Below are positions 14,723-47,033 of a stretch of 64,000 nt of DNA, piece by piece. The notes beneath the pieces are model-generated. The model saw only the letters and a program-made list of their open reading frames with translations, was not told where the DNA came from and did no database searches. Source of the DNA: a virus; the IMG/VR virus record IMGVR_UViG_3300020450_000010, positions 1 to 64,000 of that record; one strand, written 5' to 3'. Every line of letters starts with the position of its first letter. Position 1 is the first letter of the stretch. Both the position numbers and the translations under genes were made by a program.

Positions 14723-15430
14723 TTATCCTTTAATAATATCTGTATACAGCGGGCGAGGGTAAGTATCTAATACATTATCCGGAGCAAAAGGAATTGGTTT
14801 AACTTTATCTATTCTGGGATCAAAATAATCATGTCTTACACTGGTATCTTTTCCGTAACCAATTCCCATAATAAATCTAAAATCTAGTGCTCTACTATCT
14901 TCTGCTAGTTTAAAGATTTCAGTTGCTCTTTGATAGTTGTTACATATGTTTTGACACATGCCGCTTTGAATTCCTCTATTAGCTAGTGCTAACATTATAT
15001 ATGCTACAAAAATTCCTATTTCTAAATTTTCACTTTGTGTCTGATCACCATGTGGATCATTTGTTCTCTGATTACCTAACCCATGTCCATCAAATGTTCC
15101 TCTATAACTATTCTTTTCATATCTTATTTCAGTATCAGCACAGTATCTTGCATTGAATCCTAATAGCCATGGAGCAAGTACTTGTGGATTGCCTGGGTCT
15201 ACTTCAGCTTCTAAGTCTTGATTTCTGTGACAGATAGTCATTATTTCTTTGCGTATGTTGACATCGTCGTTTCTTAACAATCTAACTTGATACGGAAATT
15301 GTAAATTTTTACTAGGAACATGTTGATAAACTTCCTTTAATACTTCATCAATTATTGATCTGTCGGGTATCCTATCTTCATCCCATGCAAAAGTAGTATG
15401 TCTCGATTGAATTATTTGTAACCATTCCAT
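14723..15430 (-). CDS. nitroreductase-family flavoprotein
   Basis: IQSRHT, VPSKNLQFPY, IMLALANRGIQSG, MGIGYG. Confidence 0.75.
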   Translation of the reverse strand: MEWLQIIQSRHTTFAWDEDRIPDRSIIDEVLKEVYQHVPSKNLQFPYQVRLLRNDDVNIRKEIMTICHRNQDLEAEVDPGNPQVLAPWLLGFNARYCADTEIRYEKNSYRGTFDGHGLGNQRTNDPHGDQTQSENLEIGIFVAYIMLALANRGIQSGMCQNICNNYQRATEIFKLAEDSRALDFRFIMGIGYGKDTSVRHDYFDPRIDKVKPIPFAPDNVLDTYPRPLYTDIIKG

Positions 15431-16554
15431 TACAATATTTTCCTTTTTGGTATTTTACTATCAGCACTAGATACACAACTTTCAGTAATACAAGGACGAG
15501 GGCCGTTGAATAATTTAAATCCTGTTTCTATGTTACCAATTGGATTGTCATGGCAACTATAGCTACGTTTAATACTTCCGTCAGGCTCTCTTATAATTAT
15601 GCCACTGTATCCTGCATTACAACTCCATCCTTTGAACTTGTTAAAATTAAACGCATTAAACCGTTCTGCTTGATCCATGTACCATTTTTTACCTTTATTG
15701 TCAGTGAACTCTACCTGCATGTGCCATGGTACACTTTTATCATTTTCTCCGATAGTCTGTGGTGGCAGTTCGAAACTAGGTTTTGGACGATCATTCCATT
15801 GTCGCTTTAACTCAGTATACGCCATTTGTGGCATACCGTTGTATAAACGATCTTTCATATCCCTAGTGTATCCATCAACCACTTTTGACGCAGACGGATC
15901 CGACTGAGGCTTGAGGGTGACATTGATTCCTTGTTCATGGAAGAACAGTGCATTGTCCCAATCTTTTTCAAACCATTCTGGAACCATAACCATATTGATT
16001 GTAATTTGAACATCATATTCCTGACACAAGATCAGCTTATCAGCAAAGTCCTGCATTTTTTCTTTAGTATTTAAGTGTTCTGTATGCAAGCTGGCTGTGA
16101 TGCTAGCTCTGTGAAATGGTTTAACTCGTTCTACATACTGTTCAAACCATTTCATAGGCCTCGAACAGTTTGATGTCATGTGGACACTAGTATAATTAGT
16201 GTTGTGGACATCAGAAGCCAAATGCCCAAGGATGTCCAGGTATCCTGGGTGGAAAGTTGGCTCACCGCCAGATAAGCTAAAATGAAAGCTGTTAAAATTA
16301 TTAGCACGAGCTTGCCTTTTTATTTCGTCGATTGTTTTGAAACATAGTTCTGTTGGTCTGTGATCTTTTCTGTCGCTTCTTGCATAGGGCCAGCAGTAGC
16401 TACATCTGTAGTTACAGAATCTACCGAGGAGCCAGCTAACAGTAAACAAGTCTCTATATAAGAGTGTCCTTTGACCGACTTGAACAATGTCATCATACGG
16501 GATTTTGGTAAAGTCATATTCGCTCCATTTTAAATCTTCATTGGATTTCACCAT
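15430..16554 (-). CDS. radical SAM protein with C-terminal twitch/SPASM-like domain
   Basis: CNYRCSYC, SGGEPT, TSN; C-terminal WSCNAG...C...CITESCVS. Confidence 0.92.
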   Translation of the reverse strand: MVKSNEDLKWSEYDFTKIPYDDIVQVGQRTLLYRDLFTVSWLLGRFCNYRCSYCWPYARSDRKDHRPTELCFKTIDEIKRQARANNFNSFHFSLSGGEPTFHPGYLDILGHLASDVHNTNYTSVHMTSNCSRPMKWFEQYVERVKPFHRASITASLHTEHLNTKEKMQDFADKLILCQEYDVQITINMVMVPEWFEKDWDNALFFHEQGINVTLKPQSDPSASKVVDGYTRDMKDRLYNGMPQMAYTELKRQWNDRPKPSFELPPQTIGENDKSVPWHMQVEFTDNKGKKWYMDQAERFNAFNFNKFKGWSCNAGYSGIIIREPDGSIKRSYSCHDNPIGNIETGFKLFNGPRPCITESCVSSADSKIPKRKIL

Positions 16555-16684
16555 TTAGTCTCTTTTCCAAATATTCTATAACATGCGGTAACATAGGATC
16601 TTTTGTTTTCAAGTATAGCTCTTTCGCACCCTGTAGTTCGTATTCTAAAAATTCTTTTACAGTCCAAACATCATATTGTGTCAT
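16538..16684 (-). CDS. small hypothetical protein (48 aa, not in ORF track)
   Basis: Read by hand: MTQYDVWTVKEFLEYELQGAKELYLKTKDPMLPHVIEYLEKRLNGEIQ*; ATGA overlap with the upstream stop. Confidence 0.6.
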   Translation of the reverse strand: MTQYDVWTVKEFLEYELQGAKELYLKTKDPMLPHVIEYLEKRLNGEIQ

Positions 16685-17322
16685 AGTGTTAAACCTTTTG
16701 TTTCTTTAAATATATCTTGGGCTAGTGTTTTATGTGTAATTTCACCAGGATGATCATTATCCAATGCAAGTGGATTATTTTTAATTAATTGCAAATAGTC
16801 TATTTCCAATATCTTTGTATCAAAGAACTTATAATCCTTCCTTAGATAATTATGCACTAAAATATGATAATTTCTAATTTTTTTACTATTTAAAAATAAG
16901 TTTGCGTAGTGAATGCAATAATGTTGATTCAATGACATATCATTATCATCATGTACATGACTAAAAAATGCTGTAGATGCTCGTTGTTTTTCATTTAAAT
17001 ATTTTTCTGTAGCAAAATTACTAGGATTGGCATGCCATACTCCTAGACGTATAATATAATCTTTCTTAATTACACAAAATCTATCCGTAAAAGTCCAACA
17101 TATTACAACAATGTCATCAGTGTTATAGTCATAATTTAACACATGATGTGCTATCTCTTTATTACTTGATCCTTTATAAGACATATTTACAACTGGAATA
17201 TTTGCTAAGTCGCCGAGAATCTGAGGCCATGCAAGTTTGCTAGGTTGTTCATTGTCGGGATGAATATCACTAAGTCCTTGCCCATATGTGGCGCTACAAC
17301 CAAATGCAACTAATTTACTCAT
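16681..17322 (-). CDS. SGNH/GDSL hydrolase-like protein (possible acyltransferase/esterase)
   Basis: AFGCSATYG (block I), NMSYKGSSN (block II), DNDHPG (block V DxxH). Confidence 0.7.
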   Translation of the reverse strand: MSKLVAFGCSATYGQGLSDIHPDNEQPSKLAWPQILGDLANIPVVNMSYKGSSNKEIAHHVLNYDYNTDDIVVICWTFTDRFCVIKKDYIIRLGVWHANPSNFATEKYLNEKQRASTAFFSHVHDDNDMSLNQHYCIHYANLFLNSKKIRNYHILVHNYLRKDYKFFDTKILEIDYLQLIKNNPLALDNDHPGEITHKTLAQDIFKETKGLTL

Positions 17323-17867
17323 TTAATATCCTTTACTTTAGATAAAAATAATTCAGCACCATTGCCTACATTGGCATTCCAATCTTTCATTGCATTTTCA
17401 TCAGCCATATCACTAACATATTTCCAACTTTTAAAAGGTATTCCGTATTGTTTTGCTACATATGCTAGTGCCCAGCCTTCCATGTCAACACAATCTATAT
17501 CAGCTTGTGTAAACCAAGGATCATATTCCATTACAAAACTATCACCTGTTCCACAGCGTATACCACCATTACCAGTTTTAATATCACCTATTAGTGGATC
17601 ACTAAAAGGAATACTACCTCTAGGGGCTTGTGGTTCTGCACACATGTCTCTTTGTACAAAAGCACCAACTTGATTTAAACCTGTGACTTTTGGATTTAAT
17701 CCTCCAGCTGTGCCATAGTTTACAATTAAGTCTGGTTTATGAAAATGACATAAACTTTTTGCAAGAGCAGTAGCCGCTTGTACTTTTCCAACTCCAGTAT
17801 AAACTATATTAAAACCATTTGGAGGTTCTGGCAGTTCTGCTTGTAATGCTACGCATAATGTTATCAT
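17319..17867 (-). CDS. mtnN: 5'-methylthioadenosine/S-adenosylhomocysteine nucleosidase
   Basis: GVGKVQAA, IVNYGTAGG, TGDSF, VDMEG, YVSDMAD. Confidence 0.85.
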   Translation of the reverse strand: MITLCVALQAELPEPPNGFNIVYTGVGKVQAATALAKSLCHFHKPDLIVNYGTAGGLNPKVTGLNQVGAFVQRDMCAEPQAPRGSIPFSDPLIGDIKTGNGGIRCGTGDSFVMEYDPWFTQADIDCVDMEGWALAYVAKQYGIPFKSWKYVSDMADENAMKDWNANVGNGAELFLSKVKDIK

Positions 17868-18412
17868 GTTTGTCTTTCCTGCATAGGGTCAATACTTAAC
17901 TCATTTATATTAACATGTTTTGGCTGTTCAATCAACCATTTAATATAATCGGCGGCTTCATCTTCTAACATACATTTTCTGTCCGGATGTTTATGTTGAT
18001 TATTTGCTAGCGTACCAAAACTTATTAAACTTATTTTAGGACCACTATGCCATACTCCAACCAAACCCAAACTGTTGCAATAGTCTCTGAGTGCTTTCTT
18101 TTCAGCACTATACAACCATGCTTGACCTTTCTTGGTACGGTCAGTGGTACTGCCAATACATACTATATGTGCTTCCTTTTTGGCGTTATACACTGCTTTG
18201 TATACTAAATCCAGTAGGACAGTTTGACTAAAGCGCCATAATGCACTATTAATTATAATAACATCATGTTTAGTACATTGATTTGCAAACTCGAACATAT
18301 GGTCGGTGTTTGTTAAATCATACCCTGTTGTACGACTGCAAAAAACTGCATTAGGATATACTTTGTGTAGTGCTTTTGCCAAGCCAAAAGTTTTGTTTCC
18401 AGTAATAATCAT
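17864..18412 (-). CDS. short-chain dehydrogenase/reductase (SDR)
   Basis: ITG...GLAKAL, INSA, IGS, YSAEK (YxxxK), PKHVNINELSI. Confidence 0.8.
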   Translation of the reverse strand: MIITGNKTFGLAKALHKVYPNAVFCSRTTGYDLTNTDHMFEFANQCTKHDVIIINSALWRFSQTVLLDLVYKAVYNAKKEAHIVCIGSTTDRTKKGQAWLYSAEKKALRDYCNSLGLVGVWHSGPKISLISFGTLANNQHKHPDRKCMLEDEAADYIKWLIEQPKHVNINELSIDPMQERQT

Positions 18413-19692
18413 GCAAATATCTCCATATCATTTAAATGCCTTGGCAGTATGTTTTTAAGTTGTTCAAGTTCAGTGCTTTTTGGTGAACACAATCCACAAC
18501 CACATAATTTATTAGGACCTAGCGGACATTGTATTATTGGCATTGTTTTTGTTTCTAACTTATCTTTGAGCCATGTTATTATTTTATCACTTTCAGTAAT
18601 ACTGCCAATGGCTCCTCTTGTTCCATCAAAACGTGCTTGACAAGTTTGATGATGGAATATTTGATCCGTTTGTTGTTCTATATGTAAGAAAAACCAATTA
18701 ACACTACACTGCCAATTTTGAAATCTTTGGTAATCTAAGAATTTTGTTTTTGTCCAACATCCATTTTTGCCACCAGTTTCCATTATTCTTCCACCACAGC
18801 ATGGTCTACCCAAAGTTTCTGATTTATTTTTTGGACTTTTATATGTAGCATAGTCTTTGACTGCTCTTACATCTTTTTTAATAGGTTCAAATTTTTCTAC
18901 AGTTTTTTGTACTTCGACTGTATTATTTACTATGGTTTCTTGCAATTTGACATCACGTTGTATTTCATATTCCTCTACTTTTAAATTTTTAATCTTTTTA
19001 TCACTGCTTTTCCAATAATCTTTCATCCATTGTAATTGTTCATCAGTGTATATGTGAGCGGCAGTATCTCCTTGTTCGTCACCAATCATACGAGGAACAA
19101 AAACTATGCTATCTTCAGTGAGTTGTCTACACAATTCAATACACTCATCAAAATATTGTGCATGAAACATTACATTTATTTTCATGTTAAAGTCATTGTC
19201 CTTTAAAAAATAAATGTTTCTTATAACCTGTTTTTTTAAATTTTTATGTGCTTCAACATGATAACTTATTGTACAGTTATCATATACTTGTAATATACTC
19301 TGTGCCATCTTTTCGCCAAATGCACCATTGCTGGTTAATCCTAGTTTTAGTTTAAATTTATCTTTGTATTCTTTAGTATACAATTCACGTAACCATTGTC
19401 CAAATTCTATAAACTTAGGATTTACTGTTGGTTCACCTCCTGTAAAACTTACATTTAGTTGATCTTTGGTTTTGTATTTGCAAAGTAATTCACTATAATC
19501 AAATAAAAACTTACCAACACTTTGAAGTTCTTGTAAACTAGCATGCGGGCTAAAGTTATCATGTCTATGTGAAGGACAATAAGTGCAATCATAATTGCAC
19601 CTTCTACCAGTGTCCCAGGTGACTACCAGTGGACCATCTTTATGATCGAACAAGTTAACTGTTTCAAAATCTCTTGACTCAGCTTGGCCCAT
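18409..19692 (-). CDS. radical SAM protein with C-terminal Cys-rich domain
   Basis: CNYDCTYC, TGGEPT, TSNG; C-terminal PCCGG, WQCSVN, CP...CGCGLC. Confidence 0.92.
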   Translation of the reverse strand: MGQAESRDFETVNLFDHKDGPLVVTWDTGRRCNYDCTYCPSHRHDNFSPHASLQELQSVGKFLFDYSELLCKYKTKDQLNVSFTGGEPTVNPKFIEFGQWLRELYTKEYKDKFKLKLGLTSNGAFGEKMAQSILQVYDNCTISYHVEAHKNLKKQVIRNIYFLKDNDFNMKINVMFHAQYFDECIELCRQLTEDSIVFVPRMIGDEQGDTAAHIYTDEQLQWMKDYWKSSDKKIKNLKVEEYEIQRDVKLQETIVNNTVEVQKTVEKFEPIKKDVRAVKDYATYKSPKNKSETLGRPCCGGRIMETGGKNGCWTKTKFLDYQRFQNWQCSVNWFFLHIEQQTDQIFHHQTCQARFDGTRGAIGSITESDKIITWLKDKLETKTMPIIQCPLGPNKLCGCGLCSPKSTELEQLKNILPRHLNDMEIFA

Positions 19693-20633
19693 TATAATTC
19701 TTCCTTAATAAAAATATCTCTTTTGTTTTGTTTACATACCTGTTCACATCTAGGTATTCTAACATCACTGGTCCAACTATTTTTGATATCAGTCCAAACT
19801 TTACCATTTATTGCTTGGTCAACTGTTACACTCTTTAGATTTATATCTACTAGATAATCTTGTTCTATTAGTATATCTTCAAATCTATCTTTTCGTTTAT
19901 TACTAATAGGATACTCTAACATCTTTGCATTCAAATGACAACAAGGAATAACATTGCCCATGTGATTTACAAATATTCTTTTTTGATTTCCGTACTTACA
20001 ACTGATACTTGGATTTTCTTCTTGTTCCACTTTTTTATGCTTAACACCACCAGTATCTTTTCTATGACTGATAATAGTTTTAAATTCTACAAAGCCTTCG
20101 TCTTTGGCTATTTGTTTTGCAGTCTCTAACTGATGCTCATTGTGTTCAAAACTAATAAACTGCCAGTTAGCTCTACCTCCTGCGGCAATAAATGCTCTAT
20201 AATTTTGCTGTACTTTTTTAAAACTTGAGCCTTCTCTATAAACTTCGCTTAGTTCATCACTACCATCAATTCCCCAGACTACTTTGTGACTACTAGGTAA
20301 AATTTTAGCTAGCTGTTCCCACCACTTAGTGGTTCTTAGACTACCGTTTGTAGCAATATTGATATGTGCGTTCCAATCTGCAAAATGTTCAATGATTTTA
20401 TGAAACTGCGGGTGACTGCACGGCTCATCTACACTTCCACAAAAATTAATAATCTTAATATTAGGAAACATTTCTTTTTGAAACTTTTCTTTAAGTGTGT
20501 CGAGATCCAAATAGGTTTTGTTTAATATTTGATCAGCATGTTCACTCATCACACGAAAACAACCTTTGCAACGAATGTTACAAAAACTTGTAAGTTCAAT
20601 ATCAATCCATTCTAATGTATCAATTGACCACAT
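19692..20633 (-). CDS. radical SAM / SPASM-twitch protein
   Basis: CNIRCKGC, FCGSVDEP, TNG, FEHNEHQ, PCC, CEQVC. Confidence 0.92.
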   Translation of the reverse strand: MWSIDTLEWIDIELTSFCNIRCKGCFRVMSEHADQILNKTYLDLDTLKEKFQKEMFPNIKIINFCGSVDEPCSHPQFHKIIEHFADWNAHINIATNGSLRTTKWWEQLAKILPSSHKVVWGIDGSDELSEVYREGSSFKKVQQNYRAFIAAGGRANWQFISFEHNEHQLETAKQIAKDEGFVEFKTIISHRKDTGGVKHKKVEQEENPSISCKYGNQKRIFVNHMGNVIPCCHLNAKMLEYPISNKRKDRFEDILIEQDYLVDINLKSVTVDQAINGKVWTDIKNSWTSDVRIPRCEQVCKQNKRDIFIKEEL

Positions 20634-21453
20634 TCGTCAAAGCCCAATCACGTTCAGCACACCAGAAACAACCTTCAGACAAATCATCTATAATGTCACA
20701 GCAAGTTACCAATGGTGTGGTTCCATGGATATAATTTTTCAAAGTTGGAAAATCTTTTCTCCAACTGGTTGAGTCATATTCATGTTCACAACTTCTAGTT
20801 ATGTCAAGTAGTTCAGTCCAATTATTATTGTAGTACTGTTTTACAATAAACGTTTTATCCAATAGTGTAAATGGAGTAATATGTTCTACATTAACTTGAG
20901 GACACTTCTGTTGAGATAAAAGTTTTTCTTTTGTCCAATTGCGTTTATCTAATGCTGTAGGATGACTGAAGTTTTCATCTTGTGGATTACTAGTTGTAAA
21001 ACCATACGTAATATCTAAGTCATAAGTGTGCATTGCATATCTATTGAAACTTTGTACACAAACTGTATCTCCAGGAGCACCAACTTGTTCAATGTTGCCA
21101 ATTACACCATGCTCAAGTTCTGGAGGAATAAAGTTTTCTATTCTTCTAATAATAATGTTGGGGAACATAGCAACAAGTTTATTGTACACATCTATGCTTA
21201 CTGGTTGTTGCCACGGTCTGGTCTTCCAACATCTGTTGTGTGTTATAACTGTAATTTTTGTATCGCATTCAAGCTCGGTGATTAACTTACATAATAATGC
21301 TGTGCCACATGCACTGTCAGCACCGCCTGATAAGTTTACACCAATATTTTTAATAGTAGGATCAAATAGAAAATACTCATTATCTATTACGTGTAATATA
21401 TCTTCGTCTACATTAAAATGTGTATAAGATAGATTATTTAAACTATCATTCAT
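20620..21453 (-). CDS. QueC-like PP-loop ATP pyrophosphatase
   Basis: LSGGADS PP-loop; TRSCE...GCFWCAER zinc motif. Confidence 0.75.
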   Translation of the reverse strand: MNDSLNNLSYTHFNVDEDILHVIDNEYFLFDPTIKNIGVNLSGGADSACGTALLCKLITELECDTKITVITHNRCWKTRPWQQPVSIDVYNKLVAMFPNIIIRRIENFIPPELEHGVIGNIEQVGAPGDTVCVQSFNRYAMHTYDLDITYGFTTSNPQDENFSHPTALDKRNWTKEKLLSQQKCPQVNVEHITPFTLLDKTFIVKQYYNNNWTELLDITRSCEHEYDSTSWRKDFPTLKNYIHGTTPLVTCCDIIDDLSEGCFWCAERDWALTNVVN

Positions 21454-22843
21454 TGAATATATCCTTCATCTCTGGAAATGTTTTTGCAAAACTTAATGAA
21501 CGTTGTCTATCACATAAGGAAAGAAACTCTTTCATTTCAGGCAAACGTACACTCCAATCTTCGCTTTCCATAAAATTAAGTATACCTTCTAATCTTTTAA
21601 TACCATACTCTGCACTGCGCCAAGTACTATAATCTACTTTACCTTTATGCCAACTTGGAACTCCTAGTTCCCAATTTTGCTTCCACCAAGGATACCATGC
21701 TTCGTATTTTGCTCTACACTTTGCTTTAAAGTCTACAGGTAAACTTTTAACATTGAGATGTCCGGGCCAATATACAAAATGCTGACTAATGCCGCCAGCA
21801 CCAAATGGCCACATATTAAGTTTCTTAAAACCTTGTTCTAATTTCCATTGTATAAAGTCTGGCAAGTAATATACATTAAGTGCTTGTACTGCACAGGCAA
21901 TTGTTACTTCTACATTGTCGCTAGTATCGTTATCTAATATATGAAATACTTCTTCCTGACGTTTCCATTCGCTTGGATAACGAATATAGTCATTCATTTG
22001 TTTAATGCTGTCTACCGAATAGTGAAAACGCACAAGTTTGAATTCTCTCCATAGATCAAATAAATCCTCTCGCCATTCAACTCCATTTGAGTTATAACGT
22101 AATTCCAAATCTTTTGCATAGCCCATTTTAATTGCATGTTCAAGTATTTCATAGTGTTCCTCAATAATTAAACTCTCTCCACCTGCAAAGTATATCTGTT
22201 GCATTGTGGGCATTTGTTCGTAAAACTGTTTCCAAAAAGTTGGATTTTGTTTGTGCCAGTTGTAGCTACTACCATTGGTACTGCCTTTGTTATCCCATGA
22301 CATGGTGTGTTTCAATGATTCGTTTTGTACTTGTGGAAAGATTTTTTTATAATCTTTAATCCAGCCACTACTATCATGTGGGCTACACATAACGCAAGCC
22401 AACTGACATTTAGTACCAAAACGTAAATCAATATATGCTAGATTAGGCGGCACTTCTCCGTCAGGTTGTGTGTCAGCTACTATCTTATCTAAGTCAACAC
22501 GTTGGCTCCAATAATTTGTTTCCCACATGCGTTTACTTCTATGTCCTGCCGCTTCTTCTTTGTAGCATTTTAAACAACTAGGTGGTTTCTCTCCATTGAG
22601 CATCTGCACTCGCACATTTTTCATATAGTCGCTGTTCCATGCTGTTTCAAAGTCGCTTACATTTAAGTTGTTAGGTCGACCTTCTTCATCTTTGAGGATA
22701 CCAACTTGTCCACCGTGTTCTTTGTCATTGGTAGGACCTACACTACTTGCATTTGCAGTGCAACATACACGCATACTACCGTCTGGTCTTGTACTAAGGT
22801 GAACCCAAGGTAACAAGCAAAATGTATCGCTGGGGGATTTCAT
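21446..22843 (-). CDS. radical SAM protein with N-terminal twitch/SPASM-like domain
   Basis: N-terminal CLLPW..CC..CLKC; CQLACVMC; AGGES; YNSNG. Confidence 0.92.
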   Translation of the reverse strand: MKSPSDTFCLLPWVHLSTRPDGSMRVCCTANASSVGPTNDKEHGGQVGILKDEEGRPNNLNVSDFETAWNSDYMKNVRVQMLNGEKPPSCLKCYKEEAAGHRSKRMWETNYWSQRVDLDKIVADTQPDGEVPPNLAYIDLRFGTKCQLACVMCSPHDSSGWIKDYKKIFPQVQNESLKHTMSWDNKGSTNGSSYNWHKQNPTFWKQFYEQMPTMQQIYFAGGESLIIEEHYEILEHAIKMGYAKDLELRYNSNGVEWREDLFDLWREFKLVRFHYSVDSIKQMNDYIRYPSEWKRQEEVFHILDNDTSDNVEVTIACAVQALNVYYLPDFIQWKLEQGFKKLNMWPFGAGGISQHFVYWPGHLNVKSLPVDFKAKCRAKYEAWYPWWKQNWELGVPSWHKGKVDYSTWRSAEYGIKRLEGILNFMESEDWSVRLPEMKEFLSLCDRQRSLSFAKTFPEMKDIFNE

Positions 22844-22848
22844 ACAAA

Positions 22849-22856
22849 TATTTATA
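22849..22856 (-). promoter_or_regulatory. T4-type late promoter TATAAATA (minus strand)
   Basis: Exact consensus, 5 nt upstream of ATG 22843. Confidence 0.7.
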
Positions 22857-22862
22857 TGCTAC

Positions 22863-22870
22863 TATAAATA
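22863..22870 (+). promoter_or_regulatory. T4-type late promoter TATAAATA (plus strand)
   Basis: Exact consensus, 5 nt upstream of ATG 22876. Confidence 0.7.
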
Positions 22871-22875
22871 TCAAT

Positions 22876-26746: not shown

Positions 26747-26747
26747 T

Positions 26748-27422: not shown

Positions 27423-27442
27423 TTATTTCTCCATTATCAACT

Positions 27443-27679
27443 TTATACATTAATAAAATAAATCCAAATTAGTGTTGGTATAATTATAGCAAACTGTGGC
27501 ATAAAATTTAATAGTAATGCTTTTTCATTCCACCTATAACCAACATAACACCAGCCTGTTGCTCCTAACAACTGTACATAGGCATTCCAAGGAGTCACAC
27601 CTAAAGTGTGCAATAACATTGCAATTAGGATTGTGATAGCACTTGCGTATTTAATATACCAAACATGATCTCTATTCAT
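27443..27679 (-). CDS. small membrane protein
   Basis: 78 aa with three hydrophobic segments. Confidence 0.7.
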   Translation of the reverse strand: MNRDHVWYIKYASAITILIAMLLHTLGVTPWNAYVQLLGATGWCYVGYRWNEKALLLNFMPQFAIIIPTLIWIYFINV

Positions 27680-27893: not shown

Positions 27894-27895
27894 TT

Positions 27896-29537: not shown

Positions 29538-29544
29538 ATAATTC

Positions 29545-39860: not shown

Positions 39861-41032
39861 TTTGAATAGTATTCTCCTAGCTTTGGATGAACATTTAAGA
39901 TGCTTTGATGTCTGACATTGTCTAGAGCTTCAGTTCGTTGTACCCATCGTTTTCTTAATATATCAGTATAATCACTATCATCAACTGTGATCAATCGTTC
40001 AATAATATGATCTATCCGAGATTCATTTCCTAACAAGTTATTATATTTAACAAGTATATCTGCACGTTCTTGTCTGTCAGATTTTTCTGCAAGATCAATA
40101 CTTAGGTCATCAGGATAATTTACTAAATTAAAAATAAGTTTTCCATTCTCACTTTTATTTTCTTGCCAAAATTCAATAATTTTTTCTATGTTCCATAAGT
40201 TATACAATTGAACAGTTGACATTATGTGTATTTCAGTGTTTGCCATATCTCTGTATTTTTTGTATGCTTCACTCAATGTATTCCAATCTGCTCCGCTTCT
40301 TATGTAATCATTTGTATAACCAACACCACACATACTAAACTGTATAACTTTTTTAAAGTGTTCTAATAGCTTGTATGTCTTTCCTTGTAATCTTGTTCCA
40401 TTTGTTGTAATATCTAAAAATACATTTGTGTTATTACTTTCTATCATCCAACGTAATAATTTTAATACACCTGGCATAAACAATGGTTCACCACCAGCTA
40501 GTTTTAGTGTATGCGTATGAGGTATAAGTTTTTTAACACTTTCAAATGATATTGGATCATTTAACCAATCTTTTATATCTCTAGGATTATCGCCTACTAG
40601 TTCAGCAAGTTCTGGATTATCTACAAGTTCTTCTGCAATAGCACTGCTGACATCACTGAAACACATTCTGCATTTTAAATTACACAATCTGCCTGGTCTT
40701 AAATCTAAGTACACTGGTACTTCTAAGTTATTACCATTTACAACATCAATTTCTATATCAGGAAAATTGTCTACCCATATTTTGTTGTGTACAACTCTAT
40801 CACTGCTATCACCTTGATTATAACAAAGCGTACAACGTGATTCTTTTTTGTTGTCTAACATTGTTTGCCTGATCTTTTGCATCTTCTCACTGGTCCAATG
40901 AACAGTCAGGTCAGAAACATGCTCACTAACTGGATTGTCCCAGTCGGCTACACAGCATAGATTTACTGCACCATTGGTAGCTACATACTGATGTACAAAA
41001 GGAAGTATGCAGAATTTATCTTTTTTTACCAA
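39854..41032 (-). CDS. radical SAM protein with N-terminal twitch/SPASM-like domain
   Basis: FCILPF..CC..CTLC; CNLKCRMC; AGGEP; TTNGT; start uncertain (TTG 41032 fits paralogues; ATG 41080 and 41128 are possible). Confidence 0.88.
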   Translation of the reverse strand: MVKKDKFCILPFVHQYVATNGAVNLCCVADWDNPVSEHVSDLTVHWTSEKMQKIRQTMLDNKKESRCTLCYNQGDSSDRVVHNKIWVDNFPDIEIDVVNGNNLEVPVYLDLRPGRLCNLKCRMCFSDVSSAIAEELVDNPELAELVGDNPRDIKDWLNDPISFESVKKLIPHTHTLKLAGGEPLFMPGVLKLLRWMIESNNTNVFLDITTNGTRLQGKTYKLLEHFKKVIQFSMCGVGYTNDYIRSGADWNTLSEAYKKYRDMANTEIHIMSTVQLYNLWNIEKIIEFWQENKSENGKLIFNLVNYPDDLSIDLAEKSDRQERADILVKYNNLLGNESRIDHIIERLITVDDSDYTDILRKRWVQRTEALDNVRHQSILNVHPKLGEYYSKW

Positions 41033-42725
41033 CTGATGCAAGGGTAGCTGATTTTTTCCTTGATTCTTTTTCTTTAACATCTCTAAAAACCTGTAATAAT
41101 TCTGGACAAACGTCTGAGAATTTTTCATTTCTTATATTATCTAATTGACCTGTAATTTGAAAAAACTTATCCCAATGTTGTGTATTTGCTTCTTTCTTCC
41201 ACATATGATCTAACACTGCATTTAAATGTTTTTTGGTTGCTTGCCGCCAAAAACGATTATCATTTTCAGGCCATTTTTTATCTATGGCTTGTTTGAACTG
41301 AATATAACGTTGTTCAATAAACTGTTTAACTTCATTGGGTAGATTTTGTATATTCATCCAATCTGGGCCATAAAGCATACTAATATTAAACCAGTCTTGT
41401 AAACGTGCAAAATTTTGTTCTTTATGCCACCATACAAAGTCTAAGACATGCAATACATTGTATATGCTTAATGTCAAAGCAACAGAAGCACTTACTCTAT
41501 CAAATCCATCTTCTTTATCAATCCTATTCATTCCTCGCAGTGCTTTGTTCCATTTGCCTGGATATCGCATGTATTCAAAATGTTCATACATACCGTCTAA
41601 GCTCATTCCTATTCCCACATGTCTAAAATGTTTCCATTGATCAAAAACTTTCATTGGCACACCTGCCATATTTGTATTGTATTCTAAATGCACCTTATGT
41701 GCAAGACCTTTTTCAATGATTATGTCTAACAGTTGTCTATGTTTTAAATTGATTGTTGGTTCTCCACCTGTAAAATAGTATCTATCAATATTTTCAATGT
41801 TGTCAATAATGTGTGTAAAGAGTCCACTGTCTTCCCACCAATTGTTTATTTCTGGTACATCATATTTTCCGTTTTTGTCTTTTTCAATATACATCATTGC
41901 GTGATCTCTATAGGAAAATCCGCCTGGTTTTTTGTCAGGTTCCCATTCTTCTGTCAACTTGTAAAAGTCTTCGTACCATAGGTTACTATCTGTTGGACCA
42001 CAGCTACGGCATGCTAGATTACATTTGTTTCCAAAACGAAGATCTAGGTATTGTAAAGGAAATTGTTTACTATCAATTGTTCCATCGGGTTTGGTATTGA
42101 CAAGTGCTCTTTCAAATAAACTAGGATATTTGTCCTTGGTACCTACACGTCTACTATTCACGCCCGTTGCTTCTTGCATTGTACAAAGTTTACAAATACT
42201 AGGATCAATACCTTTTAGCATTGCACTACGTATTTCTTTTAGTGCTGGATGATTTCTATATGCTTCTGGATCATCACTGCCGGTATATGCTTCTTTAACA
42301 TTGCTGTCAGAATTTTCCTTGTACAAAGTACCGTACTTGGGTTCTATATCATTCTGTGTCATTTGACAACACATTCTTACACTACCATCTGCATTTGTAG
42401 CAATATGATTCCAAGGAATAGTGCAAAAAACTTTCCAACGTTGGTCTTTGGCTTCATATTCTCTGAGAATTTTTTTTTGTTTTAAAACTGTATCGTCTTT
42501 TTCTTCTAATCTATCTTTAAGTATAGATCTAATTTTATCATTTAGGTTTGGTAGAAAATAAATTGATTCAAGAACTAGTTGATCCTGGTCATAAGTTGCT
42601 ACAGTTTCTAAAACATCTAAGGGACAATCTGGATCTTCGACCATGGTACAACGTTCCTGCATTGTACGAAATATAGCAGGATCTAAACTAAATTTATCAT
42701 GTTTTTGTTCTTCTGTAGTTTCCAA
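41016..42725 (-). CDS. radical SAM protein with N-terminal extension and twitch/SPASM-like domain
   Basis: FCTIPW..CC..CKLC; CNLACRSC; TGGEPT; YNTN. Confidence 0.92.
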   Translation of the reverse strand: METTEEQKHDKFSLDPAIFRTMQERCTMVEDPDCPLDVLETVATYDQDQLVLESIYFLPNLNDKIRSILKDRLEEKDDTVLKQKKILREYEAKDQRWKVFCTIPWNHIATNADGSVRMCCQMTQNDIEPKYGTLYKENSDSNVKEAYTGSDDPEAYRNHPALKEIRSAMLKGIDPSICKLCTMQEATGVNSRRVGTKDKYPSLFERALVNTKPDGTIDSKQFPLQYLDLRFGNKCNLACRSCGPTDSNLWYEDFYKLTEEWEPDKKPGGFSYRDHAMMYIEKDKNGKYDVPEINNWWEDSGLFTHIIDNIENIDRYYFTGGEPTINLKHRQLLDIIIEKGLAHKVHLEYNTNMAGVPMKVFDQWKHFRHVGIGMSLDGMYEHFEYMRYPGKWNKALRGMNRIDKEDGFDRVSASVALTLSIYNVLHVLDFVWWHKEQNFARLQDWFNISMLYGPDWMNIQNLPNEVKQFIEQRYIQFKQAIDKKWPENDNRFWRQATKKHLNAVLDHMWKKEANTQHWDKFFQITGQLDNIRNEKFSDVCPELLQVFRDVKEKESRKKSATLASVGKKR

Positions 42726-42736
42726 AATATCTCTTC

Positions 42737-43378
42737 CTAACTATTTAACAACAGTTTTTTATTGCCATCTATCCATTTTTGTAAATCAGAATCAAAATTT
42801 ATTTTATCTAAATCTGGAAAAATTGGTACAAGTTGATCACTTATAGTGCTTGTAGTCAAATTTTTAATATCTATTATATATGAATTTTGAAAGTGTCCTG
42901 CGTACTTCATCACATCTGTGTTTATTAAAGTGGCATGAAAATCTTTGAAAAAATCTTGTTCTGTTTGCGTTATATTTATTTTTTTTAATTTTTGATAACA
43001 TAACCTTGTCCAATATCTATAGTTACAATTTACAACTAAGCAAATACAATTAAAACTTTTAGGCCAATAATCAAATACATCAACTGTATAGTGATCCTTG
43101 TATAGATTGAGTTTTGTTGGATCATCTTCTCCTTTATAGTGTTCTGTATAATAATTTTTATTTTCTAATCCTACCTTACTATAAGTTACTTTGGATACAC
43201 TGGACCATCTATTATTATTAATTTTCTTCTCAGTATCTTCATGGTGTAGACTAACCGTTAATCGATTGAACTGCGGAACATGTTTTGTAAGTATTCCACT
43301 CAAATACTCTCCACCAGTACCAGGGTGATACAACAATACATAATCATTGTTGTTGGAAAAAGGAAATTTCATTCTCAC
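42737..43378 (-). CDS. hypothetical protein, possibly sulfotransferase-like
   Basis: YHPGTGGEYLSGIL Gly-rich N-terminal loop; weak similarity only. Confidence 0.5.
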   Translation of the reverse strand: MRMKFPFSNNNDYVLLYHPGTGGEYLSGILTKHVPQFNRLTVSLHHEDTEKKINNNRWSSVSKVTYSKVGLENKNYYTEHYKGEDDPTKLNLYKDHYTVDVFDYWPKSFNCICLVVNCNYRYWTRLCYQKLKKINITQTEQDFFKDFHATLINTDVMKYAGHFQNSYIIDIKNLTTSTISDQLVPIFPDLDKINFDSDLQKWIDGNKKLLLNS

Positions 43379-44771
43379 TGTATCCTACTAGTTTACTTGC
43401 ATCATCTAAGGCCCTGATAGGCACTAAACTTATTGCACCAATTTGTCTATTATTTGCACCCAAAGTATCTAGTCCCAACTCAATTATTTTTTCTTTGAAC
43501 TCACTTGCTCTATCCAAATAACCAGGAGGAGTCATCAATTTAATTTCTAACCAATGATCTTTGTTTACTTGCTTATGGTGATTTATGATAGCTTCACAGT
43601 TTTCTATAAATCTTTGTTCGTTACCAGGAAATTTATCCATGCTTCCAAAGTGTGCAGACATATTAATACTATTAATATATTTTACAGCTTCGCTCCAAAA
43701 CTTTTTGCTACGGCTTCCATTTGTTGTTACTAATACCCATTGTTTTTTGTAATTTAGATGTTTGAGTATATCCATAAATTGTGGATGCATACTGGGTTCA
43801 CCACCACCAAAGTTCCAGCGTATTTCATCTCCTTCTGCCCAGTGATCCACTGCTTTATCAATTGTTTGAATAATTTTTTCATAAGCATGATGTGGTTCCA
43901 CATTGTTGTGTACACTGGGCCAACAATAATCACAATCGTAATTACAACGTCTAGTAATATCCCAAAGTATTTGATGTACAATAGGAAAGTTCATTTCCAT
44001 TCCGTGAGGATTTTCAATTTGGTTATTTGTGTTGAAGCCATGTTTTTGTCCCTCAAAACCAAGATTAGTTACAAAAAGTTTTCCAACACTGGATACAGTT
44101 TTTGCTTTGCTTAATATTACATCTGCTCCACAGCCACAGCTTGTATAAGGACATTTTAACCATGTGTCAGGAGCTTCCCAATCTGTATAGATACTACCAA
44201 GTAATCCCCAGTCTTTGTCTTCAACAGTTGTTTTATAACTCCAGTTCTCAGGTGACTTAAGAAACTGCTTGTATAACTGATTGTTTCGATCACCAACATG
44301 TAGATACTTGTCAGGACTAAAGAACTCTGCTTCAAGCCTTGCTATCTCTGCCATTAACTTGTGTTGCTGTTCGCTATCTTTATGATTATACTTGGGCATA
44401 GGCCACCCATTTACTGTATTTTCATTAAGCCATTTTTTACGAAGTTCGCAATTAGGATCATCAGTGCCTATTATTGATTCACGATACTCTTTCCAAGCAT
44501 CTTCCAAATGTTGTTCATGATTTTGTTTAGTTTGTTTGTGAAAGTCGTTAATACGTTTAGTATGTACTTTACCATAGAAGTTTGAACTTGCACAATTAGC
44601 AACCCATACATTGCCGTCATAATCTATATAAAGATTACGTGCACCTGCACTACAATGCCAGTCTTTCCAATGATTCAGCCCCTGTGCAATAATTTCATCA
44701 ACTGAAAATAATTTGTAATTTGCATGATTATCATACAGTCTAAGTTGTTTATTATCTGTTGGTTGTTCCAT
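43344..44771 (-). CDS. domain-permuted radical SAM protein (twitch-like domain N-terminal, radical SAM C-terminal)
   Basis: N-terminal WHCSAG..IDYDG..C...CPYTSCGC; C-terminal WDITRRCNYDCDYC, GGGEPS, TTNGS. Confidence 0.88.
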   Translation of the reverse strand: MEQPTDNKQLRLYDNHANYKLFSVDEIIAQGLNHWKDWHCSAGARNLYIDYDGNVWVANCASSNFYGKVHTKRINDFHKQTKQNHEQHLEDAWKEYRESIIGTDDPNCELRKKWLNENTVNGWPMPKYNHKDSEQQHKLMAEIARLEAEFFSPDKYLHVGDRNNQLYKQFLKSPENWSYKTTVEDKDWGLLGSIYTDWEAPDTWLKCPYTSCGCGADVILSKAKTVSSVGKLFVTNLGFEGQKHGFNTNNQIENPHGMEMNFPIVHQILWDITRRCNYDCDYCWPSVHNNVEPHHAYEKIIQTIDKAVDHWAEGDEIRWNFGGGEPSMHPQFMDILKHLNYKKQWVLVTTNGSRSKKFWSEAVKYINSINMSAHFGSMDKFPGNEQRFIENCEAIINHHKQVNKDHWLEIKLMTPPGYLDRASEFKEKIIELGLDTLGANNRQIGAISLVPIRALDDASKLVGYSENEISFFQQQ

Positions 44772-45427
44772 TATTTTACTACTTCTTCAGGAAAGAAAAT
44801 TGCATCTTTACAGAACTCTTGTGCATGTTGATGTTGTTTGTACCCTAAATTATTTAAAATCTTTACTATAAGGTGATCATTTCCATCTGTCACAATAGTT
44901 GGACGATATTTAGATATAACTTCTTTTGCTCCCAAAATTGCTTCTGCATCTGCACCTTCGAGATCAGTTTTTAAAAAATCAATAGGAGTATCTATTATAT
45001 CATCTATTTTAGTTGTGGTGAGCTTGCACTCACTGATATTTGTTTGCGTTTCGGGATTGCTGAGATTGTGAAATAAGAAACTTTTATATAAAGACCCTAG
45101 TGCAGGATCGTCTTCGGGTCTATAAAAAGTTAACTCATCTCCAGTTGATGAATATAAACAGTGAGAAATTAAATTAACATTATCAATGTTATCCAAATGT
45201 TTATGAGCATTAGGACTAATTACAGCATCTATACTAGTAACTTGATCAAATATGTCCGCATATACCATACTGTATGTGCCATTGGCGCCGATACCACAAT
45301 CAACAGCATGTATCCATCTATTGTTAAACTTACCATGTACTATTAGAGGATAATACAATGTTGTGTGTCCAATCTTAAGGTGTTCACTGTAAGCTACTGG
45401 ATCAACGTTATAATTTATTAGGCTCAT
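44771..45427 (-). CDS. FkbM-family methyltransferase
   Basis: VDCGIGANG, TTKIDD, IDFLKTDLEGAD.EAILGA..I..YRP. Confidence 0.78.
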   Translation of the reverse strand: MSLINYNVDPVAYSEHLKIGHTTLYYPLIVHGKFNNRWIHAVDCGIGANGTYSMVYADIFDQVTSIDAVISPNAHKHLDNIDNVNLISHCLYSSTGDELTFYRPEDDPALGSLYKSFLFHNLSNPETQTNISECKLTTTKIDDIIDTPIDFLKTDLEGADAEAILGAKEVISKYRPTIVTDGNDHLIVKILNNLGYKQHQHAQEFCKDAIFFPEEVVK

Positions 45428-46038
45428 TATTTGTTTTCCAATACAACTCTTATTACACCAAAAAGAGGATCTTTTAGCACTGCTTCATTGTATATTGCAT
45501 TGGTATCTATTTCAAGTTTATCTAAATGCGTATTACTATACATCTGGTCATTTTTTAAATATCGACTTATATCTTGTTTGGTTTGTTCTTTTTGTCCATG
45601 CCAAAAGTAATGTACATTTCCAAGTTTTTGCCAACGTTTTTTATTTTTCCATTCATCTATGTTTTGATTTTCGTTTAGACTGATGTACATCCTATTGCAT
45701 TTGTTCAGTGCTTGTTTGATATTTTTTTCGATATCGTTCCAATGCAAGCTGTTTACAGCAATACCATATTTGTACTCTGGCAATTTTTCCCATGCTTCAT
45801 CATATTGCCAACCAAAAATGTCTGCTTCATTTGTCCGATCCATTCCAACAATATTTTTAAAAAATAATTTTAGATTGTTCTCACCACATCCTATATCAAG
45901 TATGTCATACCAATCATGACATTCAGTAATAAAACTATACAAAGGTTTAATAGTACAAAAAGGCAAGAATTCACTTCTTCTTGCTGTGTGTCTTAGTCTA
46001 ACTATATATTGCCAAGTTTCATCATATAATTGTATCAT
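45427..46038 (-). CDS. class I SAM-dependent methyltransferase
   Basis: ILDIGCGEN, VGMD, AVNSLHW. Confidence 0.75.
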   Translation of the reverse strand: MIQLYDETWQYIVRLRHTARRSEFLPFCTIKPLYSFITECHDWYDILDIGCGENNLKLFFKNIVGMDRTNEADIFGWQYDEAWEKLPEYKYGIAVNSLHWNDIEKNIKQALNKCNRMYISLNENQNIDEWKNKKRWQKLGNVHYFWHGQKEQTKQDISRYLKNDQMYSNTHLDKLEIDTNAIYNEAVLKDPLFGVIRVVLENK

Positions 46039-47033
46039 TCTTCTATCACATATCTATTTCTTGGTAATAATTTCTTACTCATTATGTCAAAATTACAATG
46101 ACACATAGATTTATTGCACATCACAGGCTTTGTGGGCCAGCGTATATATTCAGGCATTTTCATATTGCCAAATGCACCGCCTACTCTACACCAACCAATC
46201 ATTACACTGCCATCAAAGTCAACAACAATTTGTTCTATACCACTCCAACACAACCAGCCTTTCCAGTTGTTAGTTTTGTCATTGATAAATCTGTGGGCAC
46301 TGCTATTCTGATTAAGTTCGTTTACGTCATCATGCATTTGCATACTGCCGCGATAAATTTTCCATTGCTTTGTGTGCTTTATTTTACTTCCTAAATTATG
46401 CCACTGTCTGTCTATATATTCAGTTTGCCAATCTTCATAACTGTATAATGTCTCGCCAAAATCAATAATTAATGGTTGTAGTGCTAAACTGATATTTGGA
46501 ATTTCAATTACATCTTCAGCAACTTCTTGACAACGAGGCCATATCTCTGGATCATAATGCATCATTACATTTACATGTGTTCTGCATTGTTCACTCATAA
46601 TTTTAACGACTTCTACAAAATGGTCTGCTTTTCCTTCTTCAGGATGAAAACTTAAACATACATGATCAAAAATGTGCTTATGCTTTTCCCACCACCGTAT
46701 GGTTCTACTACTATTACTAATAAAACCTATATCATGTCCTATTTCTTTAATGTATTCAGCACCCTTAATAAAATCTCGCCATAAGGTAACTTCACCTCCT
46801 GTAAATTCAAAATAAATTTTACGTGGAGAGTAATGTTCTACAACACTATCTATAAAATCTTTAACTACTTGAAAATCGTTCCAACCAAAACTACCATCAT
46901 GCAATATGCTGGGACAATAACTGCATTTGAAATTGCACATATTGCCTAAGTTCCAATTTACTACTACCCAGTCTTTACATTCAGGATGATGATGGTCCAA
47001 TCTATTGTAGAAATTCTGTGGACCTAGTGGCAT
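46035..47033 (-). CDS. radical SAM protein with C-terminal twitch-like domain
   Basis: CNFKCSYC, TGGEVT; C-terminal WLCWSG..DFDG..C...CNKSMCHC. Confidence 0.92.
   Translation of the reverse strand: MPLGPQNFYNRLDHHHPECKDWVVVNWNLGNMCNFKCSYCPSILHDGSFGWNDFQVVKDFIDSVVEHYSPRKIYFEFTGGEVTLWRDFIKGAEYIKEIGHDIGFISNSSRTIRWWEKHKHIFDHVCLSFHPEEGKADHFVEVVKIMSEQCRTHVNVMMHYDPEIWPRCQEVAEDVIEIPNISLALQPLIIDFGETLYSYEDWQTEYIDRQWHNLGSKIKHTKQWKIYRGSMQMHDDVNELNQNSSAHRFINDKTNNWKGWLCWSGIEQIVVDFDGSVMIGWCRVGGAFGNMKMPEYIRWPTKPVMCNKSMCHCNFDIMSKKLLPRNRYVIEE

Follow-up and report, generated by a model that had tools for sequence, protein, structure and literature searches.

Why a virus should carry twelve radical S-adenosylmethionine (SAM) genes in a single block is the question raised by a DNA stretch of 64,000 nucleotides (referred to below as the window), which makes up positions 1 to 64,000 of the IMG/VR record IMGVR_UViG_3300020450_000010. 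The window is the first half of one linear 124,715-bp contig devoid of terminal repeats, and the genes in question lie between positions 15430 and 47033, inside a block of 47.5 kb (6354-53865) that is 99% coding and has only four gaps longer than 40 bp. It is possible, while short of probable, that this block encodes a late-expressed tailoring pathway acting on a sugar or nucleoside-sugar unit, whose product would be displayed on the virion or the infected-cell surface as a glycan-like decoration of variable make-up.

The identity of the genes themselves is shown by the sequence analysis. In the interval 15430-47033, 12 of the 34 open reading frames (ORFs) are radical SAM genes, 11 on the minus strand and one on the plus strand. 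A preliminary description of the window had named twelve such genes at these very places; it listed eleven by their low coordinates because those genes lie on the minus strand, and the remaining one, whose ORF spans 22822-24156, by the in-frame ATG at 22876, 5 nt past a TATAAATA box. The signature CX3CX2C, to which the SAM-cleaving 4Fe-4S cluster binds, is present in all twelve and in zero other ORFs of the 124.7-kb contig, and all twelve match PF04055 at E <= 1.5e-5, nine of them reaching its gathering score of 29.5 bits. Of the three that score lower, 39854 (27.9 bits) and 41016 (25.7 bits) are still counted as radical SAM proteins because they pass the cut-off of family NF033640 (280 and 341 bits versus 170), and 25141 (25.7 bits) because it is paralogous to 24143 (BLASTP E 5e-41). 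The genes are listed below with their paralogue group, one member each of groups A, B, and C being termed an anchor.

15430-16554, minus strand: group A anchor, 374 aa; CX3CX2C at residues 47-54; PF04055 55.4 bits.
18409-19692, minus strand: group A, 427 aa; PF04055 29.5 bits, equal to the cut-off; BLASTP to 43344 E 4e-15 and to 46035 E 1e-13.
19692-20633, minus strand: group B, 313 aa, with a C-terminal twitch-type domain; PF04055 32.4 and SPASM 25.9 bits; Cys 212, 231/232, 296, and 300.
21446-22843, minus strand: group C anchor, 465 aa, with an N-terminal twitch domain; NF033640 415 versus 170 bits; SPASM match at residues 9-94.
22876-24156, plus strand: group C, the sole plus-strand gene of the block, likely start ATG at 22876; NF033640 223.6 and PF04055 39 bits; TATAAATA at 22863-22870.
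24143-25144, minus strand: group B, 333 aa; PF04055 39.1 bits; BLASTP to 25141 E 5e-41.
25141-26226, minus strand: group B anchor, 361 aa; PF04055 25.7 bits, below the cut-off; CX3CX2C.
37812-39860, minus strand: group D, B12-binding radical SAM protein of 682 aa, class-B methylase-like; PF02310 36.1 versus 32.1 bits, PF04055 70.7 bits.
39854-41128, minus strand: group C, 424 aa; NF033640 280 bits.
41016-42725, minus strand: group C, 569 aa from a TTG; NF033640 341.2 bits, the family match beginning at residue 98.
43344-44771, minus strand: group-A-related protein with a 265-aa N-terminal extension and without the C-terminal Cys cluster; PF04055 52.1 bits at residues 272-393.
46035-47033, minus strand: group A, 332 aa; PF04055 39.5 bits.

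None of the twelve genes is truncated, interrupted, or otherwise a pseudogene, and they are predicted to encode working radical SAM enzymes from four old subfamilies. The simplest use for such enzymes in a phage would be that of auxiliary metabolic genes, i.e., phage copies of the housekeeping NrdG, QueE, MoaA, lipoyl or biotin synthase that raise host metabolism, and a 2010 report on Campylobacter phages CP220 and CPt10 proposes such a role there (PMC2853527). Weak N-terminal matches to MoaA, NrdG, and QueE models do exist in the window, but all twelve proteins fall far below the family cut-offs, the best scores being 42.9 bits for MoaA (cut-off 284), 28.6 bits for NrdG (131), and 19.3 bits for QueE (206-260). 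Moreover, no canonical partner genes accompany them, and the family varies extremely between close relatives, so that we regard a housekeeping role as highly improbable. The preliminary description had set against its own view the chance that most members would prove to be housekeeping enzymes or pseudogenes; neither was found, because the NrdG, QueE, and MoaA scores are far too low and the genes are intact. The prokaryotic viperin model NF038283 gives at best 57.1 bits (43344, N-terminal part only) versus a cut-off of 180, and no curated family cut-off is reached by groups A, B, and D.

All-against-all BLASTP returns the same four groups that had been described from motifs: A (15430, 18409, 43344, and 46035), B (19692, 24143, and 25141), C (21446, the plus-strand ORF 22822, 39854, and 41016), and D (37812). 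The described cysteine motifs are likewise real and, apart from 43344, are kept when each group is aligned with relatives from other contigs (19 rows for A, 42 for B, and 17 for C). In group A, the four C-terminal cysteines (Cys 312, 334, 355, and 360 of 15430, in a twitch-like domain) are conserved in 18 of the 19 rows, 43344 being the exception. The C-terminus of group B has the pattern C-x18-CC-x63-C-x3-C, where the CC and C-x3-C cysteines are present in 42/42 rows and the first one in 40/42. In group C, a comparable pattern, C-x17-CC-x61-C-x2-C (C9, C27(C28), C90, and C93), stands at the N-terminus ahead of the radical SAM core and is kept in 15 to 17 of 17 rows. SPASM domains proper bear seven to eight conserved cysteines including CX2CX5CX3C; with four to five conserved auxiliary cysteines, groups A, B, and C lack the full two-cluster SPASM pattern, and the PF13186 cut-off is reached in only two of the twelve proteins (19692, 25.9 bits; 21446, 24.0 bits). 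The earlier assignment of twitch/SPASM-like auxiliary domains thus stands in its one-cluster form: as judged from the aligned rows, A, B, and C appear to be of the "twitch" type, having a single auxiliary cluster that lies at the C-terminus in A and B and has moved to the N-terminus in C.

Group C corresponds to the NCBIfam family NF033640, whose cut-off is passed over the full length by all four members, while groups A and B score at most 50.3 bits with this model. BtrN's twitch domain (residues 181-257) gives a weak alignment with the N-terminal domain of group C. Looking for fused, longer versions of the C anchor brought up a single uninformative protein, and the 120 relatives listed for a bacterial NF033640 protein contained no informative fused domain. 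By BLASTP, a segment near the N-terminus of 43344 (residues 23-69) is similar to residues 245-291 at the C-terminus of 46035, which hints at a second domain permutation akin to that of group C. Protein 37812 of group D bears a B12-binding domain followed by the radical SAM core (PF02310 and PF04055), the arrangement of the class B (B12-dependent) type, and fits no named equivalog among PhpK, RiPP (ribosomally made peptide with post-translational modifications) C-methyltransferase, HpnJ, and BchE models, the best being PhpK (122 versus 600 bits) and RiPP C-methyltransferase (118 versus 282 bits).

How this array came about can be judged from its viral relatives. IMG/VR contains 142 stretches with a gene related to the C anchor, and the counts given here for viral loci use the best 80, each locus spanning at most 21 kb; in these, the C-anchor relatives are 80-89% identical. 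The number of radical SAM ORFs per locus ranges from 1 to 13, and together they make up 625 of 1367 ORFs (46%), counting non-overlapping ORFs of at least 110 aa. The C anchor is kept in 80/80 loci, and, at 50% identity or more, the B anchor in 73/80 and the A anchor in 41/80 (median identity of the A-anchor homologue is 83% over the 55 loci with a match). The radical SAM genes between the anchors, by contrast, are only 21-35% identical to those of the window, and the window's own paralogues are mutually 19-36% identical (BLASTP). The four window copies never pair as sisters in a tree built from 21 group C proteins, and 21446 and 41016 each fall into a well-supported clade with viral and Bdellovibrionales proteins. 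The preliminary description had ascribed the array to repeated duplication and divergence. Its paralogue groups are borne out, but a recent or local expansion is contradicted by the low identity of the copies, by orthologues of 80-89% identity in other viral contigs and of 40-68% in a bacterial one, and by the tree. Since the paralogues are far apart, their orthologues are close in other contigs, and the group C copies belong to separate lineages, the array appears to be assembled from old subfamilies that are exchanged as cassettes. It was also suggested that the paralogues differ in the site or step on which they act, which is plausible and remains a putative assignment.

The statement that such a density of radical SAM genes is very high for a virus holds in comparison with most cultured phages: among 50,697 phage records, the three anchors have matches in 3, 4, and 8 records. 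It does not hold as a claim of an unprecedented count, in view of CP220, CPt10, and a marine T4-like genome, and for this lineage it is normal, as the 1 to 13 genes per locus found here show. In two of the cultured phages, Vibrio phage K566 and Ralstonia phage RsoM2USA, the neighbourhoods are annotated nearly throughout as "hypothetical protein". A megablast search with 24.9 kb of the block against the same 50,697 records gave zero matches.

The place of the block in the genome and the probable time of its expression are indicated by the motif TATAAATA, which we take to be the T4 late-promoter box. It is depleted both in the window (3 copies versus 11 expected) and in the 124.7-kb contig (6 versus 26.5 expected). 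All six copies are intergenic. A start codon follows five of them at a distance of 5-41 nt (for the box at 22863, the in-frame ATG 22876), and no ORF lies downstream of the sixth (124304) within the contig. One copy precedes the baseplate operon, one precedes the portal operon, one lies past the tail-fibre array (the sixth), one marks the junction of a giant gene with the block, and two share a divergent spacer. The sites bordering and inside the block are:

53886-53893, minus strand: TATAAATA box separating the giant virion gene from the first block gene, found by motif scan.
22849-22870, no single strand: two back-to-back TATAAATA boxes in a 32-bp divergent spacer between 21446-22843 (minus) and the plus-strand gene.

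This spacer (22844-22875) is the only divergent one in the block. Each copy of the back-to-back pair lies 5 nt from a start codon; transcripts initiated from these boxes would be nearly leaderless. The 80 relatives contain 126 boxes, of which 33 are followed within 60 nt by an ORF on the same strand, compared with 3.5 expected from random placement (maximum of 8 in 200 trials). Furthermore, in 5/5 large relatives, the C anchor is found 14-30 kb downstream of a giant ORF of 4651-5296 aa on the same strand. Because of the box placement together with this conserved site, we conclude that the block probably belongs to the late structural region, and from the promoter motif we infer its late expression.

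Several observations weigh against this timing. The box ahead of the C anchor is kept in only 1/80 relatives, which fits the idea that it may be needed here only owing to the inverted neighbour gene. Late expression is read from the motif and from the T4 rule, and two RNA libraries contained a few block contigs of 155-186 nt that give no proof of transcription; being few and possibly due to DNA carry-over, they carry no claim of expression.

The companion genes indicate what kind of pathway the radical SAM enzymes may serve. A Pfam scan of the block covered 53 of its 54 ORFs, 24 of which have a match and 29 of which belong to no Pfam family. The relevant products are as follows, with structure models made with AlphaFold2 (AF2) and graded by the predicted local distance difference test (pLDDT).

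6929-8203, minus strand: FMN (flavin mononucleotide) reductase, flavodoxin-like, fused to a class I methyltransferase; PF03358 44.1 and PF13649 28.1 bits; paralogue at 11808-12452.
8693-9493 and 10085-11008, minus strand: two TauD-type iron/2-oxoglutarate (Fe/2OG) dioxygenases; PF02668 60.2 and 65.5 bits.
9465-10076, minus strand: Asp/Arg-hydroxylase-like cupin between the two TauD genes; PF05118 24.3 bits.
11808-12452, minus strand: FMN reductase (flavodoxin-like); PF03358 47.6 bits.
14723-15430, minus strand: possible nitroreductase-family flavoprotein, a lead only; ESM Atlas 0.93 and 0.92 to clusters with PF00881 in 29% and 11% of members; no Pfam match.
17319-17867, minus strand: methylthioadenosine/S-adenosylhomocysteine (MTA/SAH) nucleosidase-like protein; PF01048 65 bits; 34/34 PDB matches are MTA/SAH or related nucleosidases.
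20620-21453, minus strand: QueC-like PP-loop ATPase, BLASTP paralogue of 26748-27422.
26748-27422, minus strand: QueC-like PP-loop ATPase; PF06508 24.9 versus 22 bits, C-terminal part only.
27672-27893, minus strand: conserved 73-aa protein, in 60/80 loci at a median identity of 73%; no Pfam match.
27896-28849, minus strand: protein with a class I SAM-dependent transferase fold in its C-terminal half; AF2 mean pLDDT 71.5; at least 500 Foldseek matches at E <= 0.001.
28833-29537, minus strand: protein with the GT-A (nucleotide-diphospho-sugar-transferase) fold; AF2 pLDDT 85.3; top Foldseek matches are GT-A glycosyltransferases; D57-x-D59 invariant.
29646-31130, minus strand: carbamoyltransferase of the NodU/CmcH/TobZ type; PF16861 183 and PF02543 148 bits.
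33949-35385, minus strand: full-length TctA-family permease; PF01970 322 bits.
35495-36175, minus strand: class I methyltransferase-like protein; PF13489 25.5 bits, below the cut-off of 27.
44771-45427, minus strand: FkbM-type methyltransferase; PF05050 39.7 bits.
47034-48026, minus strand: second GT-A-fold member of the D57-x-D59 family; BLASTP to 28833 E 1e-25.

The PP-loop family has an invariant SGGxDS motif and an invariant C-x11-C-x2-C-x2-C cluster in 16 aligned rows, and its profile has no match in the PDB. For the 27896 family, Pfam and PDB sequence searches were negative, and the Foldseek matches listed for its model are mostly methyl-, aminopropyl- or aminobutyryl-transferases; Pfam searches and PDB sequence and profile searches with the GT-A-fold family were negative too. 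The partners TctB and TctC of the TctA permease were not detected. Two small hydrophobic ORFs also occur in the block, 27443-27679 (78 aa, present in only 1/80 relatives) and 29545-29661 (38 aa).

Part of this gene set recurs in bacteria. A 178.7-kb contig from a metagenome-assembled genome (MAG) of Bdellovibrionales bears about 15 radical SAM ORFs within 30 kb (141,900-172,000) and, within 9 kb, homologues of the A anchor (68% identity), the C anchor (59%), the B anchor (40%), the carbamoyltransferase (35%), and the 27896 family (24%). This contig has five dispersed tRNA genes and two response regulators, and no homologues of phage structural genes were found on it. The five-gene core common to the phage and the bacterium (15430, 21446, 25141, 27896, and 29646) argues for one pathway, as does the dense coding of the phage block. 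The bacterial island adjoins the contig end and a tRNA-Met gene; PDB searches with three of its ORFs were negative. A second bacterial NF033640 gene has glycosyltransferase genes and OmpA as neighbours, and another bacterial NF033640 protein is fused to an O-methyltransferase domain. The genome scan was run with a three-sequence group C alignment, the four-sequence one being too divergent, and returned seven loci, of which five are short or phage-like contigs binned in MAGs of unrelated taxa and were excluded from host inference. Contigs with a C anchor (60-89% identity) occur in MAGs named Flavobacteria, Neisseriaceae, Planctomycetota, and Pseudobdellovibrionaceae; these are probably mis-binned phage and give no host signal.

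The presence of two QueC-like ATPases with the QueC-type Cys cluster, of a nucleosidase-family protein, and of a carbamoyltransferase of the Kae1/YrdC type brings up nucleic-acid hypermodification, in which the block would supply phage DNA (or tRNA) with a modified base or nucleoside as a protection from host restriction, much as 7-deazaguanine pathways do. Several other features agree with it: the class I transferase model also matches TYW2 and aminopropyl transferases, ThyX is encoded close by, and the variability of the locus suits an arms race. Campylobacter phage CP220 combines 11 radical SAM genes with fully 7-amido-7-deazaguanine (ADG)-modified DNA (PMC2853527, bioRxiv 10.1101/2023.04.13.536721). 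On the other side, TGT/DpdA and QueD were not found in the contig, itself about 35% of the genome, QueE models give no more than 19.3 bits against cut-offs of 206-260, and none of the known DNA-modification families is present in the 53 ORFs scanned. A bacterium possesses the same core with about 15 radical SAM genes, and, to our knowledge, the known base-modification pathways need far fewer than the five to thirteen radical SAM enzymes met here. We therefore consider a role in base modification quite unlikely.

The tailoring pathway that we tentatively favour would work as follows. MTA/SAH nucleosidases clear inhibitory 5'-deoxyadenosine, and flavodoxins reduce radical SAM clusters. In the block, the flavodoxin-like and nitroreductase-like flavoproteins would supply electrons for cluster reduction, and the MTA/SAH-nucleosidase-like enzyme would dispose of 5'-deoxyadenosine and SAH. 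A scaffold would be built by the conserved core, i.e., the A, B, and C anchors with the class I SAM-dependent transferase and the carbamoyltransferase, and would then be diversified between phages by the variable radical SAM cassettes, Fe/2OG oxygenases, methyltransferases, QueC-like amidating ATPases, and GT-A-fold transferases, to end as a variable glycan-like decoration on the virion or the infected cell surface.

That the substrate is sugar-derived we infer from several lines of evidence. Among solved structures, group B comes closest to the sugar-nucleoside decarboxylase BlsE (profile E 1.5e-8), and the group C N-terminal domain aligns to the twitch domain of another sugar-acting enzyme, BtrN. 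The block encodes two GT-A-fold proteins with DxD, a carbamoyltransferase, and an FkbM methyltransferase. A Pfam census of 150 non-radical-SAM cluster representatives from the relatives revealed CTP_transf_3 (2), Sulfotransfer_2 (2), Epimerase (1), UDP-Glc/GDP-Man dehydrogenase (1), and GATase_7 (1). A bacterial NF033640 gene lies among glycosyltransferase genes. Finally, no PqqD domain or RiPP recognition element (RRE) is present in the scanned block ORFs, and the dense coding leaves scant room for precursor genes.

A number of facts speak against a sugar. Classical glycosyltransferase, nucleotide-sugar enzyme, flippase, and polymerase families are absent from the window's block by Pfam, where 29 of the 53 scanned ORFs belong to no family. 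The 28833 model matches the GT-A fold with VIA Z 9.4-11.5 over residues 1-147, where IspD-type nucleotidyltransferases score equally, and no match to GT1 or GT2 is found on the Bdellovibrionales island contig. The sugar-related census families amount to 1 or 2 of 150 each, and the census also contains Asp/Arg hydroxylase, TauD, Trp halogenase, and AMP-binding proteins, which point to peptide or small-molecule chemistry. Moreover, most enzymes of known structure that resemble groups A and C modify peptides, namely YydG (3.5e-8) for A and SkfB (6e-12) and CteB for C, the matches spanning only the common radical SAM core.

The latter facts lead to the modification of proteins or peptides, by which thioether or C-C cross-links, epimerisations, C-methylations, or hydroxylations would be introduced into virion proteins (tail fibres or the giant protein) or into a RiPP-like peptide. 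SPASM/twitch enzymes act mostly on peptides, and besides the YydG, SkfB, and CteB profile matches, the B12-radical SAM protein matches RiPP C-methyltransferase models (118 bits), TauD and Asp/Arg-hydroxylase-like enzymes are present, with a Trp halogenase in relatives, and the GT-A matches include the peptide glycosyltransferases SunS and ThuS. The block also lies within the late structural region, near tail-fibre-like genes. Opposed to this is the absence of PqqD/RRE domains from the 53 of 54 block ORFs scanned (Pfam, E <= 0.01; remote RREs may evade Pfam); in groups A and B, the radical SAM motif begins at residues 12-46, leaving no space for a leader-binding domain, and a block that is 99% coding offers little place for a precursor. 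The only conserved small ORF, that of 73 aa, was ruled out as a RiPP precursor, its conservation being even along its length and conserved cysteines being absent. Every model score, in addition, is far under the family cut-off. Taken together, peptide modification appears unlikely, though less so than the other alternatives.

A further alternative is a diffusible small molecule, such as a nucleoside-type antibiotic or a cofactor, made in infection to alter host metabolism or to harm competitors. The tailoring families are typical of natural-product clusters, the BlsE match and the TctA permease within the block would agree with such a product, and there is a cellular counterpart island. No scaffold-forming enzyme, however, was found, be it a nonribosomal peptide synthetase (NRPS), a polyketide synthase (PKS), a terpene enzyme, or a precursor, and the late structural site in 5/5 relatives together with the cassette variability suits a structural role better, so that there seems to be little chance of a diffusible product.

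A further scheme may be put forward as a speculation that we ourselves find doubtful: the abundant marine jumbo phages of this lineage and some predatory bacteria might possess a combinatorial "radical chemistry cassette array", in which three twitch anchors make a core unit and swappable cassettes rewrite it in each strain, giving a hypervariable covalent decoration of the host-recognition apparatus. If so, the cassette array would be the enzymatic counterpart of tail-fibre diversification, and new chemistry would be expected for NF033640 and for at least two uncurated radical SAM subfamilies; a product decorating the virion or the cell surface would add a new layer to phage-host recognition. 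The island is in any case a rich store of unexplored radical enzymes. The question is now narrowed to a testable five-gene core that is also bacterial, and the uncharacterised NF033640 family has gained a context.

As for the phage itself, contig proteins match PHROG portal, T4-type major head, and baseplate families, and the major head protein has 65-69% identity with its counterparts from Vibrio phage 2.275.O, PA5oct, Phosso, and GAP32 (68% with the first two). The giant ORF of 4008 aa occupies 53889-64000 of the window and continues to contig position 65915; it matches virion structural proteins of Atu_ph07, Phosso, and PA5oct with 28-31% identity over about one third of its length. CheckV estimates the completeness of the contig at 35%, and public contigs encoding a close homologue of the B anchor reach up to 352 kb. 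The source thus appears to be a PA5oct/Atu_ph07-like, T4-like marine jumbo myophage with an estimated genome size near 350 kb, of which the contig would represent about 35%. Window positions 15001-35000 are fully covered by contigs, mostly at 99% identity or more, from marine metagenomes of two further studies (2016 and 2024), so that the same genotype is present in three studies from 2014 to 2024. The B anchor has 3650 clusters at E <= 1e-5 in a set of 5.8 billion proteins; judging from these data, the lineage appears to be very abundant in the ocean.

Some other traits of the contig may be mentioned. Between 92 and 124 kb, it has about ten large tail-fibre-like genes with common mosaic segments (40-80% identity); most of them are followed by a small ORF (75-118 aa), and three such small ORFs are mutually similar. 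The plus-strand genes bordering the block (463-6374) encode a MoxR-like AAA ATPase, a DUF2201 metallopeptidase/VWA protein, ThyX, and a fatty-acid-desaturase-like protein. No tRNA genes were found in the window.

A high radical SAM count is already known in T4-like phages; it has been noted since 2010 and never explained. Among the T4-like Campylobacter myophages, 11 radical SAM genes are known from CP220 and 12 from CPt10, an interchangeable module containing five of them, their function being left unexplained in the available part of the report (PMC2853527). They share with the present phage their myophage type and gene number, but differ in host and habitat and are only weakly similar to the anchors (22-25% identity, E 4e-7 to 1e-3); neither an anchor-plus-cassette layout nor an N-terminal twitch domain is described in that part. 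Closer in habitat are the marine T4-like environmental genome TARA_ERS488813_N000010, with 12 radical SAM genes (PMC5332604), and the pelagimyophages, whose "host recognition cluster" holds radical SAM cassettes that differ between close relatives in a variable island between the giant gene VrlC and structural genes (PMC7029224). The gene number of the former and the variable cassettes beside a giant gene in the latter are the likeness; their genomes are 183 kb and about 150 kb versus about 350 kb here, and the capsid here is nearest to those of jumbo phages, a distinction drawn from these traits. None of the three papers, in the portions available, assigns a function to phage radical SAM genes.

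Among protein families, NF033640 (N_Twi_rSAM, "twitch domain-containing radical SAM protein") matches the four group C proteins end to end, including the N-terminal Cys pattern, but has no assigned function, and the four paralogues of the window, with many more in relatives, set the phages apart. No paper on this family or on an anchor-and-cassette layout was found in the literature searched, which did not extend to supplements. The sugar-acting twitch enzymes BtrN and BlsE resemble the phage proteins in having one auxiliary cluster with the pattern C-x~18-C...C-x2/3-C, whereas the matches to them are weak, confined to the core in the case of BlsE, and the domain order of group C is permuted. 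The RiPP maturases SkfB, YydG, CteB, and PqqE lie on a common superfamily branch with the phage enzymes (profile E 6e-12 to 2e-5), yet here no RRE/PqqD domain and no precursor gene were found, and there are 4-5 auxiliary cysteines in contrast to the 7-8 of SPASM proteins. Of the genes for 7-deazaguanine DNA modification (DpdA/TGT, FolE, QueD, and QueE with QueC), only QueC-like ones were found here, in a contig that is about 35% of the genome.

Virus-encoded glycosylation offers a further parallel, since GT-A-fold genes stand beside structural genes and the PBCV-1 glycosyltransferase A64R (2p72) is among the Foldseek matches; the glycan here, unlike that case, is a proposed one, and we know of no viral glycosylation system that includes radical SAM enzymes. 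What the present locus adds to all these systems is a conserved core, a late structural position, an island with an extremely high share of radical SAM genes, and a counterpart in a bacterium.

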